Positions 14,196 through 64,000 of a DNA stretch of 64,000 bases are shown here, piece by piece. The stretch is from NCBI GenBank assembly GCA_035636095.1, contig DASPZU010000015.1, positions 15,371-79,370 of the forward strand, written 5' to 3'. The DNA comes from Thermoanaerobaculia bacterium. GTDB taxonomy: Bacteria > Acidobacteriota > Thermoanaerobaculia > Gp7-AA8. The notes below the pieces were generated by a model, which saw only the letters and a program-made list of their open reading frames with translations, was not told the origin of the DNA and ran no database searches. The position numbers and the translations under genes are program-made. The first letter of the stretch is position 1. Each line of letters begins with the position of its first letter.

Positions 14196-14267
14196 GGTAA
14201 GGCCGGTAAGGCGGGTAAGTAGGGTGGTAGCCCCGTCTTACCGGCCTTACGTCCTTACTGTCCTTAC
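14196..14267 (+). repeat. Hairpin built from a 9-nt tandem unit (GGTAAGGCS x3-4 / inverse CTTACNGKC) between convergent genes
   Basis: GGTAAGGCCGGTAAGGCGGGTAAGTAGGGTGGTAGccccGTCTTACCGGCCTTACGTCCTTACTGTCCTTA. It spans both stop codons. Confidence 0.55.
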
Positions 14268-29294: not shown

Positions 29295-30400
29295 GCGCCG
29301 ACCGCAACCTCGACGTAGGGCGTGATGTCGAAGTTACGCTCGTGGAGTTCGTGAATGCGCTCCATCTCGGCGTCGCTGAGCGGCGGATGATCGGATGCTG
29401 ATGCAAACTCGCGGAGCTGCTGGTCGTCGTAGATGTTGGGCAGCACGGACACGATGCTGCGATGCGCGTACTGCCACAGGAGCGCGAACTGGCCGATCGT
29501 GACGCTTCGCGCGTCGCACATCGGTTTGAGTCGATCGACCTTCTGCAGTCCTTCCACCAGCCACGCGCGCGGACGATGCGAGCGGTGATCGTTCTCATCG
29601 AACTTCGTGTCGAGCGTGTACTTCCCTTCCAGCATGCCCGACGAATGCGGCACGCGGACGAGAAATTGCGGCTGCGGGTTCGCCTTCCAGGCGCGGAAAT
29701 TTGAGTCGAAGAAGCTCGTGCGCGTGCAAAGTTTCTTGTGCGTCTGACCCTGCATCGCCTCCGGCACTGCCGGATACGATGCGCCGCGCTCGGCGGCCAG
29801 CATGAACTCGCGTCCGGGATCCTGCTCCAGGAGGTTGTAGATCATCTGCGTGACCGGAGCCTTGCGCATTGCGGTAGCGTAAATGCCCTCGTCACGCCAT
29901 CCGATCGCCGGACCGAGCGACGGGCCGTACGACTGAATCTTTCCTTCGCGTTTCAGCGCCTCGAGCGTGTCCCAATGCTCGTCCTGCATGAGGACATCCA
30001 CGCGCGGATTGTGGGGTTGATAAATCGCGATGGTGCCGACGCCGAGGCGCTGCAGCGATTGCTCGCAGGCAAAGCGGATGAACTTCGGCGACATGTCCTG
30101 CGGCAGCTCGCGCTGACCGCGCGGGCGCTCGGGGTTGTTGTAGAAGTCGTATCCGAATTTCGTACCGATGACGAGATCGCGGTGCTCTTTCAGAATCGGC
30201 TTCAGGATCGATTCGCCGCGGCCGTTGCCGTAGGCATCGGCGGTGTCGATGTAGTTGATGCCGAGGTCGATGGCGGAGCGGATCAGGTCCTGCGCTTGTG
30301 TGTCGGTGTAGTCGCCCCACCAGCCCGTCGACACCGTCCAGGTACCGAAGCCGAGCTCGGAGAGTGTTAGGTCTGTGCCGTGTAATTTTCGGTATCGCAT
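29291..30400 (-). CDS. Aldo/keto reductase
   Basis: LGFGTW...IDTADAYGNGRGE is the AKR N-terminus. Confidence 0.9.
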   Translation of the reverse strand: MRYRKLHGTDLTLSELGFGTWTVSTGWWGDYTDTQAQDLIRSAIDLGINYIDTADAYGNGRGESILKPILKEHRDLVIGTKFGYDFYNNPERPRGQRELPQDMSPKFIRFACEQSLQRLGVGTIAIYQPHNPRVDVLMQDEHWDTLEALKREGKIQSYGPSLGPAIGWRDEGIYATAMRKAPVTQMIYNLLEQDPGREFMLAAERGASYPAVPEAMQGQTHKKLCTRTSFFDSNFRAWKANPQPQFLVRVPHSSGMLEGKYTLDTKFDENDHRSHRPRAWLVEGLQKVDRLKPMCDARSVTIGQFALLWQYAHRSIVSVLPNIYDDQQLREFASASDHPPLSDAEMERIHELHERNFDITPYVEVAVGA

Positions 30401-30466
30401 GGTTGCTGGGTTACTGGGTTGCTAGGTTGCTAAAGGGTTGCTCAGCAACCGAGCAACCCAGCAACT
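30401..30466 (-). repeat. Heptamer-array hairpin (GGTTGCT x4 / AGCAACC x3) between the crotonase stop and the AKR start
   Basis: GGTTGCTGGGTTACTGGGTTGCTAGGTTGCTaaaGGGTTGCTCAGCAACCGAGCAACCCAGCAACtattttc. Confidence 0.6.
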
Positions 30467-31265
30467 ATTTTCCCGCAAATTGCGGTTTACGTTTCTGGTT
30501 GTATGCCCCCAGCCCTTCCTTGGCATCGTCGCTCTGGAAGAGTTGCTGCTGCAGCTCGCGCTCGACCGCCAGCGCGCTTTCGAGCGGGATTTCCCAGCCC
30601 GTTTGCACGGAGCGTTTGATGCGGCCAACAGCTTTCGCGGCTTTGTTAGGCGGACAGAAACTCCACGCGTACTCCATGACGCGGTCCCACCACTTCCGCC
30701 CACCCTCCTCTGCCGGCCACACGTAGTTGACGATGCCCCATTCCCGCGCCTGCTCGAACTCGAACAGATTGCCTTCGCCCATGAGCTGGATCGCACGTGA
30801 CTTGCCGACCAGGCGCGACAACCGCTGGGTGCCGCCGGTGCCCGGCAGAACGCCCAGCGTGACTTCCGGCAGACCGACTTTGCCTGCGCCCTTGAGCGCG
30901 ATGCGAATGTCGGCCGCCATCGCGATTTCCAATCCACCGCCGACGGTGTGGCCGTTCAGCGCGGCGATCACCAGCTTCGGCGTCTGCTCGAGGCGCAGCA
31001 GCGTCTCATTCGCATGCAGGCAGAAGAAGTATTTGAACTGCGGTGTGACCTCGGAAAGCATCTTGATGTTTGCGCCGGCGGAGAAAAACTTCTCGCCTGC
31101 GCCGCGCATCACGATCACGTGGACGTCGTCATCCATCCGCGCCTTCAGGATGCAGTCATCCAGCTCGCGGTTCATCTCGTAGGTGTAGGTGTTGGCGGGA
31201 GGGTCGTTGAGCTCGAAAATCGCAACGCCCTTCTCCACGCGGTAGTCGATTAAGTTTCCAGCCAT
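30465..31265 (-). CDS. Enoyl-CoA hydratase/isomerase (crotonase) family protein
   Basis: ATG at 31265. MRGAGEKFFSAGANI and a crotonase fold. Confidence 0.85.
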   Translation of the reverse strand: MAGNLIDYRVEKGVAIFELNDPPANTYTYEMNRELDDCILKARMDDDVHVIVMRGAGEKFFSAGANIKMLSEVTPQFKYFFCLHANETLLRLEQTPKLVIAALNGHTVGGGLEIAMAADIRIALKGAGKVGLPEVTLGVLPGTGGTQRLSRLVGKSRAIQLMGEGNLFEFEQAREWGIVNYVWPAEEGGRKWWDRVMEYAWSFCPPNKAAKAVGRIKRSVQTGWEIPLESALAVERELQQQLFQSDDAKEGLGAYNQKRKPQFAGK

Positions 31266-32368: not shown

Positions 32369-32374
32369 GTATGC

Positions 32375-32442
32375 AGTCCTGAGTCCTGAGTGCGAGTCCT
32401 GAGTTTATATGGCTCAGTCTGCTCAGGACTCAGCACTCAGGA
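32375..32442 (+). repeat. Heptamer-array hairpin (AGTCCTG x3 / CTCAGGA x3) in the divergent pfk/glsB promoter region
   Basis: AGTCCTGAGTCCTGAGTGCGAGTCCTGAGtttatatggCTCAGTCTGCTCAGGACTCAGCACTCAGGA. It shares the same heptamer as the hairpin at 58894-58967. Confidence 0.6.
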
Positions 32443-32510
32443 ATCGGCACTGTGCTTGCTCATCCATTAGCCCGTCAGCATCACGCTGACGAAAGCTTGG
32501 AGGAAAGAGC

Positions 32511-57280: not shown

Positions 57281-58119
57281 CGCAGTGGACGCATCCGCTG
57301 CTGCAAGAGCCAGCGCGCCATTCCGGCGTCGGCGTAGGCAAGATCCCACGCATCGTGTCCAATGCCCGGATACTCGGTGTATGTCACCGTTCCACCGCCG
57401 CGCCGAAGAGCTTCGACCATGTTGCGCGACTCGCGCACGGGAACTTCATCGTCCCTGGTTCCGTGAAACGCCCACACCGGGGTCGTGCCGATTGCCTGTG
57501 CCAATGCCGAATATGGATCGGGCGCACCGACGATGCGCGCGATGTCCGGCGGCAGCTCGACCGGAAACGGATCGGCGGGATCGCGTGCGACTTCGCCGCA
57601 GATCGGAACCACAGCCGCGAATCTCCGGCGATGGCGCGCCATGTACCACGCACCCGTCCCGCCCATCGAGATGCCGGTGAGGTACACCCGTCGCCGATCG
57701 CCATGGAATTCGCGAATCGAGCTTTCGAGCGCTGCCATCACCTGCGATTCCATGTCGCCGTACCACTCCTGCCCGAAGCCGCATTGCGGAAAGATCACCA
57801 CCGCTTTGTACCGGTCGCCGAAATGCTCGAGTGCCGGAGCGAGACCTAACGCCAGTTGCCTTTCGTTGTCATCGCCCCGCTCATTGCTGCCGTGCAGAAA
57901 GAGAATCACCGGCCAGTGATGCACCTTCGTGTAATGCGGCGGCAGCCAGACGCGATAGCGATACTGATGATCGCCGAGGGAGACGCTGCGCTCGAGAAAA
58001 CGAGACTCGCGGGCGCAGGACAGGAGAAGGCAGAAGGCAAAAAGCAGAAGGCAGAAGTAAGAAGATTGCTTTGCGGTTACTTCTGCCTTCTGCCTTCTGC
58101 TTTCTGCCTTTTCGATCAC
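57277..58119 (-). CDS. Alpha/beta-hydrolase esterase (phospholipase/carboxylesterase or PHB-depolymerase-like), probable lipoprotein
   Basis: ILFLHGSNERGDD...GISMGGTGAW...GHDAW gives a Ser-Asp-His triad. The only start compatible with the upstream GT2 stop is GTG at 58119 (GTGA overlap). That gives a signal peptide ...YFCLLLFAFCLLLSC (lipobox) encoded by the GAAGGCA/TGCCTTC hairpin. The track N-terminus of about 130 aa is spurious. Confidence 0.65.
   Translation of the reverse strand: MIEKAESRRQKAEVTAKQSSYFCLLLFAFCLLLSCARESRFLERSVSLGDHQYRYRVWLPPHYTKVHHWPVILFLHGSNERGDDNERQLALGLAPALEHFGDRYKAVVIFPQCGFGQEWYGDMESQVMAALESSIREFHGDRRRVYLTGISMGGTGAWYMARHRRRFAAVVPICGEVARDPADPFPVELPPDIARIVGAPDPYSALAQAIGTTPVWAFHGTRDDEVPVRESRNMVEALRRGGGTVTYTEYPGIGHDAWDLAYADAGMARWLLQQRMRPLR
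58026..58110 (-). repeat. Heptamer-array hairpin (GAAGGCA x4 / TGCCTTC x4) inside the 5' end of the esterase CDS
   Basis: GAAGGCAGAAGGCAAAAAGCAGAAGGCAGAAGtaagaagattgctttgcggttaCTTCTGCCTTCTGCCTTCTGCTTTCTGCCTT. Confidence 0.65.
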
Positions 58120-58893: not shown

Positions 58894-58967
58894 GGTCCTG
58901 AGTGCTGAGTCCTGAGTCCTGAGTCCTGAGCGGGCGAGTGTGTCTCAGGACTCAGAACTCAGGACTC
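58894..58967 (+). repeat. Heptamer-array hairpin (GTCCTGA x5 / TCAGGAC x3) in a divergent promoter region, with a CCCACCCGCCCGG leader
   Basis: cgcCCACCCGCCCGGTCCTGAGTGCTGAGTCCTGAGTCCTGAGTCCTGAGcgggcgagtgtgtCTCAGGACTCAGAACTCAGGACTC. Confidence 0.65.
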
Positions 58968-61744: not shown

Positions 61745-63034
<1,290 letters not shown>

Positions 63035-63035
63035 T

Positions 63036-63223
63036 GGGGTCAGGTCTTTGGTTCTCGATTCACTCTACGCTATGAAGAATCCGGACTGCTCAATTGAGCG
63101 ACTTAAGCTTTTCACGGAAAGCTTGCCGCGCGTCGGTTTGCGCAGCTTTCTCTTTTTCAATCTGAAAGTTACTTGAAATTTCTACAGCCAGTATAGGAAA
63201 GCGAGAATCAAAGACCTGACCCC
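63036..63223. repeat. MITE-like element: about 188 bp bounded by 22-bp terminal inverted repeats, with a lower-GC interior
   Basis: Left repeat GGGGTCAGGTCTTTGGTTCTCG at 63036-63057. Right repeat CGAGAATCAAAGACCTGACCCC at 63202-63223 (21/22 complementary). There is a partial third copy GGGTCAGG at about 63229. The interior is AT-richer than the genome and contains the small hairpin AAGCTTTtcacggAAAGCTT. Confidence 0.5.
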
Positions 63224-63343
63224 ATCGTGGGTCAGGCTGTCACCCGCAGGCGCCATGGTCGCCCACCGAGGAGACGTCTTCCGTCAGCGGACTGTGGCAT
63301 AACGGCTGCTCACTTCCCCACCGCCGGTCCCATGAGGGGTGAG

Positions 63344-64000
63344 TATGAGAGCCATCAGATTAGCGGTCGTTTGTTGCCTTTTCCTCGGTGTTTCCTCGGC
63401 CTTTGCACAGCTCAATGACACGTACGTGATTCCTGTCGCGGGCAATACGCCGGGAGCATTCGGCACGCGCTGGATGACGCAATTCAGCGTCTTCAATCCG
63501 CAGTCCTACGCGCTGAAAGTCAGCATCACATACGTTCCAACGCTCGGCGGAAAGGGGCTGGAAGCGCTCATTCGCGTTCCTGCGAACGCAGTGGCGTTCT
63601 CGAACAACGTTCTCAGCGATGTTTTCAATTTGTCGGGCGGCGGCGCGCTGCTGGTCGCGACGTTCGCCGAAGACAACCCCGGCGTTCCGAACGACGTGAT
63701 CTCGCGCGCGTTTCTGGTCACGACGAACACGTTCAACAACTCCTCCGCCGGAACCTTCGGTCAGACGATCCCGGGCGTGTGGGCTGGGCTGATGGATTTC
63801 GACACCGATGGGATCAGCGCCGTGGCGCACGGCGTCCGCAACATCTCGCGTCAGGGGTGGCGGACCAATGTCGGCGCCGTCAACCTCGGCCGAACGAGCA
63901 TCACCATGCGATTGAATGTCTACGACATCGACGGCAACACGGTCGCGCGCAACATTCCGTTCACGATTCCGCCTCTGGCGCACATGCAGGACACGCTGCC
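63344..64000 (+). CDS. Secreted protein (N-terminal part; runs off the window), paralogue of the 909-3698 repeat module
   Basis: ATG preceded by GAGGGGTGAG. Signal peptide MRAIRLAVVCCLFLGVSSAFA. YVIPVAGNTPGAFGTRWMTQFSVFNPQ...ITYVP matches LVLPGVGRTPGAFGSNWATDVTIYNPS...LNYVP in the first gene. It is not in the ORF track because no stop falls in the window. Confidence 0.6.

Follow-up and report, generated by a model that had tools for sequence, protein, structure and literature searches.

Genes of the RAYT type that lie between terminal inverted repeats (TIRs) have been described as 'TIRtrons' and their enzymes as 'TIRYT' (Di Nocera et al. 2013, PMC3733652). According to the parts of that paper drawn on here, the TIRs follow the consensus GGGGWSAS, TIR repeat families are arranged as dimers and the best-defined TIRYT group is that of the Acidobacteria. 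TIRYT were subsequently equated with TnpA-Y1 subclass 2.1, i.e. enzymes with DnaA_C/HTH-like C-termini that correspond to RAYT group 1 of Bertels, and the relevant section of this work states that REP-like sequences beside subclass 2.1 genes were not found (Quentin et al. 2018, PMC6006769). Repeat abundance around RAYT group 1 genes is reported to be only modest, and a passage of the same paper attributes flanking 16mers that are commoner replicon-wide than IS-flanking ones only to RAYT groups 2 and 3 (Bertels et al. 2017, PMC5581495).

Here we analyse a 188-bp element that follows the citrate synthase gene gltA in a 64-kb stretch of DNA (hereafter the window, i.e. the entire stretch analysed). 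The original prediction, made from this sequence alone, was that of a MITE-like element or, alternatively, of a structured non-coding RNA with paired ends. Our data indicate that the element very probably belongs to a non-autonomous, hairpin-forming mobile family, which is mobilized in trans by a TIRYT (RAYT group 1/TnpA-Y1 subclass 2.1). This class of element is already published, which makes for modest novelty, and the most fitting label for the gltA element is that of a cargo-carrying, TIRYT-associated TIR dimer, which works like a REPIN or a MITE.

Results

Architecture of the element behind gltA

The whole non-autonomous element, which runs from GGGG to CCCC and is not assigned to a strand, occupies positions 63036..63223 (188 bp) and has termini in common with 80 paired elements elsewhere; if the conserved flanking T/A is counted in, its limits become 63035-63224. 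Its left terminal inverted repeat, GGGGTCAGGTCTTTGGTTCTCG (63036..63057, plus strand), opens with GGGGWSAS, the motif shared by TIRs that accompany TIRYT. The right one, CGAGAATCAAAGACCTGACCCC (63202..63223, minus strand), reads GGGGTCAGGTCTTTGATTCTCG on the minus strand and in this form is identical at 22 of 22 positions to the ends found in L001, L002 and L007 of the metagenome-assembled genome (MAG) QHVX01 as well as to those of the full-length element L020. Both arms open with GGGGTCAG, in line with GGGGWSAS; the element ends begin with GGGGTCAGG, and the repeat sequence is also given as GGGGTCAGGTCTTTGRTTCTCG. The 22-nt arms are reverse complements except for a single G:T mismatch, which corresponds to a G-U pair in plus-strand RNA, and imperfect arm pairing extends to 46 nt (63034-63079 with 63180-63225, 78% complementary). 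The predicted 188-bp element with 22-bp inverted repeats and one mismatch is therefore present exactly where it had been placed, and is absent from shuffled sequence. Further copies of the repeat were not found in the 64-kb window, and 100 shuffles of the window gave 0 matches.

Inside of the terminal repeats, each end carries a subterminal mini-palindrome in which four of five pairs form: TCTAC-gctat-GAAGA on the left (63064..63078, plus strand), which begins at nt 29 of the arm, and TCTAC-agcca-GTATA on the right (63181..63195, plus strand), which ends 28 nt from the right terminus. Between them lies a unique, AT-richer interior or 'cargo' (63079..63180, unstranded), for which BLAST detects no similarity to other copies or to the transposase gene described below. 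The GC content of the interior is 43-51%, as compared with about 58-65% in the flanks, and the element contains no credible open reading frame, just a 42-aa frame starting with TTG, so the GC-poor, ORF-free core was correctly predicted. So was the small AAGCTTT...AAAGCTT hairpin, which appears in computed RNA as well as DNA folds at about 63105-63124. A second small hairpin, GCGCGTCGGTTTGCGC (63128-63143, plus strand), is followed by a T-rich tail and is weakly terminator-like. As a whole, the stretch folds far better than shuffled sequences, with z-scores of -5.0 (plus strand) and -6.5 (minus strand) for RNA and -6.4 for DNA. The gltA copy is slightly degenerate, both in its two mini-palindromes and in its arms, which differ at one to three positions from the subfamily consensus, and for this reason it may be inactive.

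A probable insertion in the gltA 3' untranslated region that the closest relatives do not have

The gltA gene (61745..63034, plus strand, Pfam Citrate_synt) encodes a citrate synthase of 429 aa from the ATG at 61745. Its TAA stop codon occupies 63032-63034 and the element begins 1 nt further on, i.e. within the gltA 3' untranslated region, with the downstream signal-peptide gene beginning at 63346. Via an exact match to its GltA protein, the window can be equated with JGI contig Ga0137389_10000234 (12.2 kb at 100% identity). The element is bordered by ...GCGCTAAT on one side and by CGTGGGTCAGG on the other. Directly abutting it are a left AT (63034..63035, unstranded), whose A also ends the TAA stop codon of gltA, and a right AT (63224..63225, unstranded); the two could be a 2-bp duplication or the halves of a split A|T target.

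Relatives in which GltA is 96% and 88% identical keep the gene order rsmE-like gene, gltA, gene for a 305-aa protein and purC, and in these orthologous gltA loci (L130, L131 and L133) the element is missing. The intergenic spacer amounts to 311 nt in the window versus 109 nt in L130 and L131 (GltA 96% identical) and 107 nt in L133 (88%). Once 63036-63225 is taken out of the window sequence, the remainder aligns colinearly to the empty sites across the junction, and this junction alignment is free of gaps with just one AT removed. Two other candidates for empty-site comparison, L002 and L020, were unusable, as homology was confined to one flank or the sequence was masked.

The same alignment settles the nature of a putative truncated third repeat copy, GGGTCAGG (63229-63236). 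It lines up with the native GGTCAG of the element-free orthologous loci and is thus flanking sequence rather than a third copy. The right terminus, CCTGACCC, can alternatively pair with this native GGGTCAGG 5 nt downstream (window 63214-63237 for the whole arrangement), and the same holds for L083. Flanks resembling GGGTCAGG are mildly enriched (10 of 147, with about 2 expected); as an insertion requirement, however, a flank complementary to the terminus had to be rejected, since it is missing from most copies.

Other hairpins also occur in such positions. In L132 (4321-4450; GltA 89% identical), a different long hairpin with GGGGTCGCG-type ends and GGTTGCT heptamers is found right after the gltA stop codon, i.e. 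at the position of the window element, and this position seems to be attractive to hairpin elements. The window itself contains a second kind of intergenic hairpin, with arms made of tandem heptamers (GCAGAAG, GAGTCCT, GGTTGCT and others), at 58019-58113, 58895-58967, 30399-30468, 32374-32452 and 14197-14250; their sequences are unrelated to the TIR family.

A dispersed family with fixed ends and variable interiors

A search for additional copies of the 22-bp repeat, which had been proposed as a check of mobility, found it to be multicopy in related genomes and metagenomes. A genome scan with exact GGGGTCAGGTCTTTGRTTCT and one genome per species yielded these termini in at least seven genome stretches, and those listed all come from Acidobacteria/Thermoanaerobaculia MAGs. 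Three of the stretches are contigs of the single MAG QHVX01 ('gp7 AA11'), which holds a transposase-gene end and two short dimers. With a slightly degenerate pattern, the termini were found in more than 119 metagenome stretches. Among the matches listed, 128 loci contain 225 arms; matching plus with minus arms yields 80 elements (42-1399 bp) in discrete size classes of 67 bp (14 loci), 71 bp (10), 80-104, 127-131, 154-159, 186-199, 216-217 (8) and 984-1072 bp (5).

From outside to inside, the arms consist of the 22-nt terminal repeat, about 6 nt and a mini-palindrome, TCTAC-N5-GTAGA. If one mismatch per half is tolerated, 127 of 208 distinct arms contain the latter, as against 1.04 expected by shuffling, and in 122 of these 127 its first base is nt 27 or 29. 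Elements of the 67-71-bp class are single near-perfect hairpins tipped by the mini-palindrome; longer ones have one mini-palindrome per end and unrelated DNA in between, and subfamilies with the same arms carry unrelated interiors. Copying of entire units is apparent from the 216/217-bp subfamily, which is represented by eight sequenced loci at seven distinct sites (the flanks of L041 and L054 are identical): its copies share their interior and their arm asymmetry, with differing flanks and in both orientations. For the gltA element, no sibling was detected by BLAST with its 144-bp interior among the 128 fetched loci, which also indicates that this interior is not derived from the transposase gene. 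Arms can be clustered, as in L097 (8636-8766 and neighbours) and L073 (1237-1293), with elements 14 nt apart and two tandem plus arms, which fits a published remark on TIR repeats occurring in groups.

Immediately outside of the elements, the first base is an A in 62% and the second a T in 50%. An AT on both sides is present in 14 of 72 unique insertions, including the gltA element, and missing from many copies. A 2-bp duplication, a terminal T...A base pair and an A|T target would each be in line with these flanks; at the gltA locus, a 2-bp AT duplication and the insertion of a T...A unit between A and T look the same. As AT is its own reverse complement, it may also be part of the repeat.

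The 67-bp elements of L050, L057, L058, L068, L069, L084 and L112 combine near-identical 31-bp stems with GC-rich, near-random loops between CTAC and GTAG. For 67-bp copies with at most two differences over 62 stem positions, the divergence of the 5-nt loops is 62%, with 69% being the random value. Copying of these loops from flanking DNA was rejected (6 of 26 observed versus 5.2 expected, p = 0.43). For a given locus, the loops are stable across samples, as seen in the duplicate-locus pairs L021/L024, L086/L095 and L025/L092. Entire elements can also differ at a single place: one orthologous gap, between a gene ending in ...KRVFDQM* and a murB-like gene, contains in related genomes a 1058-bp full-length element (L125 8893-9950, and L077), a 101-bp two-hairpin element (L086 1026-1126, and L095) or a 71-bp single hairpin (L015 2224-2294). 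L005 and L112 have common flanks and different stem subfamilies.

The partner gene encodes a Y1/HUH transposase

Another proposed check, i.e. to look for a transposase gene with matching inverted repeats, was positive in L008, L020, L125 and L001. Full-length elements of about 1.06 kb (L008 1515-2583, L020 17-1088 and L125 8893-9950) have the same arms and mini-palindromes as gene-less elements of 67-217 bp, and their sole gene encodes a Y1/HUH protein, which is intact, with 326 aa, in L020 and L125. In L001, the stop codon of the transposase gene lies inside of the right terminal repeat, and homologues of the C-terminus encoded there include a Pfam Y1_Tnp protein. The transposase scores 91.7 bits against NCBIfam NF047646 (REP-associated tyrosine transposase; cut-off 80) and also matches Pfam Y1_Tnp. 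Its invariant motifs are NHxH and Y-x3-NP (residues Y119, N123 and P124), and the only match in a sequence search of the PDB is the TnpA-REP structure 4ER8. A fold search returned 4ER8 as well as the DNA-binding domain of DnaA (3PVP with target TM-scores of 0.83-0.85, or 0.82-0.85 when 1J1V is included; rmsd 1.6-1.7 Å), to which a weak Pfam Bac_DnaA_C match in the L122 protein can be added. These fold matches are used at the domain level only, because the structure model (mean pLDDT 63.8) is confident just in the C-terminal domain and of low confidence in the N-terminal half. As modelled, the 326-aa protein would combine a TnpA-REP-like N-terminal HUH/Y1 domain with a C-terminus similar to DnaA domain IV. 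It has thousands of homologues, mostly from Thermoanaerobaculia/Acidobacteriota and named RayT or transposase at their sources.

In the window, tblastn with the transposase C-terminus gave no match, and neither a transposase gene nor a second element copy is present in these 64 kb and 9 kb beyond; a cognate enzyme encoded elsewhere in the window's own genome is thus assumed. Some transposase genes look like decaying copies, namely a split, degenerate one in L009 (9688-10468; pieces of 86 and 155 aa), which is without recognizable terminal repeats, and the one in L008 (1557-1766), in which the conserved N-terminus is not preceded by a canonical start codon.

Placement next to stop codons and potential local effects

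Being placed right behind a stop codon is a common trait of these elements: 54 of 137 evaluable ends (39%) lie between -3 and +5 nt, and most often at +1, relative to the stop codon of a long ORF that converges on them, compared with 3.0% for random positions, and many elements span the space that separates convergent genes. This adjacency may be due either to targeting of T(A/G)AT or to selection. Stop codons also occur within the ends. The transposase stop codon is the TGA within CCTGACCCC, and at 16 element ends (e.g. in L025, L038, L041 and L088) long open frames continue into the element for 16 nt and are terminated by the TGA of ...CTTTGATTC. In this way, adjoining genes may receive their stop codons from elements, with some of these frames possibly being spurious.

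For gltA itself, the likely consequence, as predicted from folding, is a very stable stem-loop in the mRNA that starts 1-2 nt past the stop codon, and the internal terminator-like hairpin could end or stabilize the transcript. REP hairpins near stop codons of E. coli can stall ribosomes (Liang, Rudd & Deutscher 2015, cited in PMC12306157), and by analogy a similar stalling is possible at gltA. By contrast, the idea that the element supplies the promoter of the downstream secreted-protein gene found no support, since a scan of 62800-63500, which includes the element, revealed no sigma-70-like site.

Discussion

Mobility of the gltA element and a potential mechanism

An important question is how a gene-less element of this kind would be moved by its partner. 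The biochemistry of IS608 and ISDra2 and of the E. coli TnpA-REP is established and provides the basis for a mechanism by analogy; to our knowledge, transposition chemistry has been demonstrated for no TIRYT. Following IS200/IS605 TnpA and E. coli TnpA-REP, paired arms in single-stranded DNA would bring the termini together, the Y1 domain would recognize the GTAG-containing mini-hairpin(s), and it would cut and rejoin DNA at termini bordered by A/T, with no staggered-cut duplication of the classical kind. In addition, the duplex terminal repeat may be bound by the DnaA-like helix-turn-helix domain.

A more speculative extension concerns the hairpin tip. The CTAC-N5-GTAG apex may itself be a site where Y1 cuts and rejoins single-stranded DNA, with cargo, including the transposase gene, entering and leaving a pre-existing hairpin 'scaffold' in a manner that loosely recalls cassette exchange at folded attC sites. 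We consider this improbable; if true, however, it would explain why identical arms enclose unrelated interiors, why loops are near-random, why imperfect mini-palindromes are direct and not inverted copies in five of six informative families and why 71-, 101- and 1058-bp versions exist at one site. Loop variability and these site versions allow cargo exchange at the hairpin tip, but do not establish it.

Closely related to this idea is the alternative that the gltA element was remodelled in place, i.e. that this site was once occupied by a complete TIRYT element or by a scaffold of one hairpin, the interior of which was lost or exchanged, and that a 188-bp unit as such never arrived. The site with 1058-bp (L125/L077), 101-bp (L086/L095) or 71-bp (L015) versions and the unrelated interiors within the same arms of other elements are what one would expect from such a history. 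On the other hand, the spacers behind gltA in the closest relatives are devoid of elements, large or small, the interior bears no trace of a transposase gene and mid-size subfamilies clearly move as complete units, all of which makes remodelling at gltA a rather doubtful alternative to the insertion of a mobile unit.

Still less probable is a locus-specific structured RNA with paired ends, which takes up the second reading in the original prediction, be it as a small RNA, as an element of the gltA 3' untranslated region or as the 5' leader of the gene that follows. Very stable folds of both strands, a lone arm mismatch that becomes a G-U pair in gltA-sense RNA and the terminator-like hairpin inside are all in keeping with a functional RNA, but searching Rfam with both strands (E <= 10) produced a single chance-level match, the spacers of the closest relatives are without the element, and what is conserved are the termini, which are common to elements at hundreds of unrelated loci, whereas the interior is unique and unrelated between copies. 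A classical MITE, finally, i.e. an internal-deletion derivative of a DDE insertion sequence with cut-and-paste transposition and a fixed target-site duplication, is hardly credible despite terminal inverted repeats, small size, an AT-richer core and the AT on both sides of 14 of the 72 unique insertions including that at gltA, since all full-length elements found with such ends encode a Y1/HUH protein and nothing else, the self-complementary AT is perhaps part of the repeat and missing from many copies, and the interior is unrelated to the transposase gene.

The MITE-like reading of the original prediction holds in essence, with the element being mobile, multicopy and TIR-bounded and the closest relatives having empty sites; a classical DDE type is not supported, as the partner is a Y1/HUH enzyme, and for the same reason the closest analogue is a REPIN or a TIR dimer rather than a classical MITE. 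For the window, the insertion of a mobile element means that an odd intergenic structure is a mobile-element insertion in the gltA 3' untranslated region and not a conserved regulator, and for annotation that it should be treated as a repeat. For the field, it points to a large and diverse population of gene-less derivatives in uncultured soil Acidobacteria, with subfamilies copied to many loci and with a clean comparison of filled and empty sites. The fixed mini-hairpin, the randomized loops and the placement at stop codons represent handles for biochemical studies of how Y1 enzymes choose and process their DNA.

Comparison with known systems

Among bacterial families of 100-200-bp, TIR-bounded intergenic repeats, such as Correia/NEMIS, ERIC, RUP and other MITEs, the gltA element finds counterparts that are co-transcribed with neighbouring genes and form long RNA hairpins. 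Those of these families whose partners are known are linked to DDE transposases and have defined duplications (e.g. TA for Correia), whereas here the partner is a Y1 enzyme.

The IS200/IS605 family (IS608, ISDra2) is closer in this respect, with its Y1/HUH transposase and subterminal hairpins at both ends. Here, the imperfect mini-palindromes of the two ends, when read along one strand, agree in polarity in five of the six informative families, including the full-length elements L008 and L020, and thereby resemble the LE/RE hairpins of IS200/IS605; small as this sample is, it hints, by analogy, at a similarly strand-specific recognition. Membership in IS200/IS605 was nevertheless rejected, since the elements described here have terminal inverted repeats of 22-33 nt, of which IS200/IS605 has none, and the tyrosine motif is of the TnpA-REP type (Y-x3-NP) and not Y-x3-Q; the DnaA-like domain is an additional feature.

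With REPINs, as characterized in the part of Bertels & Rainey 2011 (PMC3116915) used for comparison, the family shares the inverted pair of units that gives one long hairpin, its non-autonomous nature and intergenic location, a single Y1/HUH partner gene flanked by the same units and a GTAG beside a small palindrome. When checked for REPIN features, the arms pair and each contains a 15-nt CTAC-N5-GTAG mini-palindrome, with most of the arm not being self-palindromic. The units are thus terminal repeats of 22-33 nt, unlike the REPs of that description, which are self-palindromic and 20-40 nt long; moreover, the partner belongs to RAYT group 1 and not to groups 2 or 3, and spacers reach up to about 150 bp and are unrelated between subfamilies.

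The best fit overall, which extends to every defining feature that could be checked, is to the TIRYT/TIRtron system as far as the sections cited above describe it: the start with GGGGWSAS (here GGGGTCAG), TIRs that flank a RAYT-like Y1 gene whose end overlaps a TIR, dispersed repeats in the form of inverted dimers, an enzyme with NHxH, Y-x3-NP and a DnaA_C-like helix-turn-helix, and an occurrence in Acidobacteria. Relative to these sections, the subfamily studied here is distinguished by its origin from uncultured Thermoanaerobaculia-like or gp7 Acidobacteria. The fixed TCTAC-N5-GTAGA, size classes with unrelated cargo, empty sites and adjacency to stop codons, all of which are seen here, may already have been described for TIRtrons in other parts of that literature.
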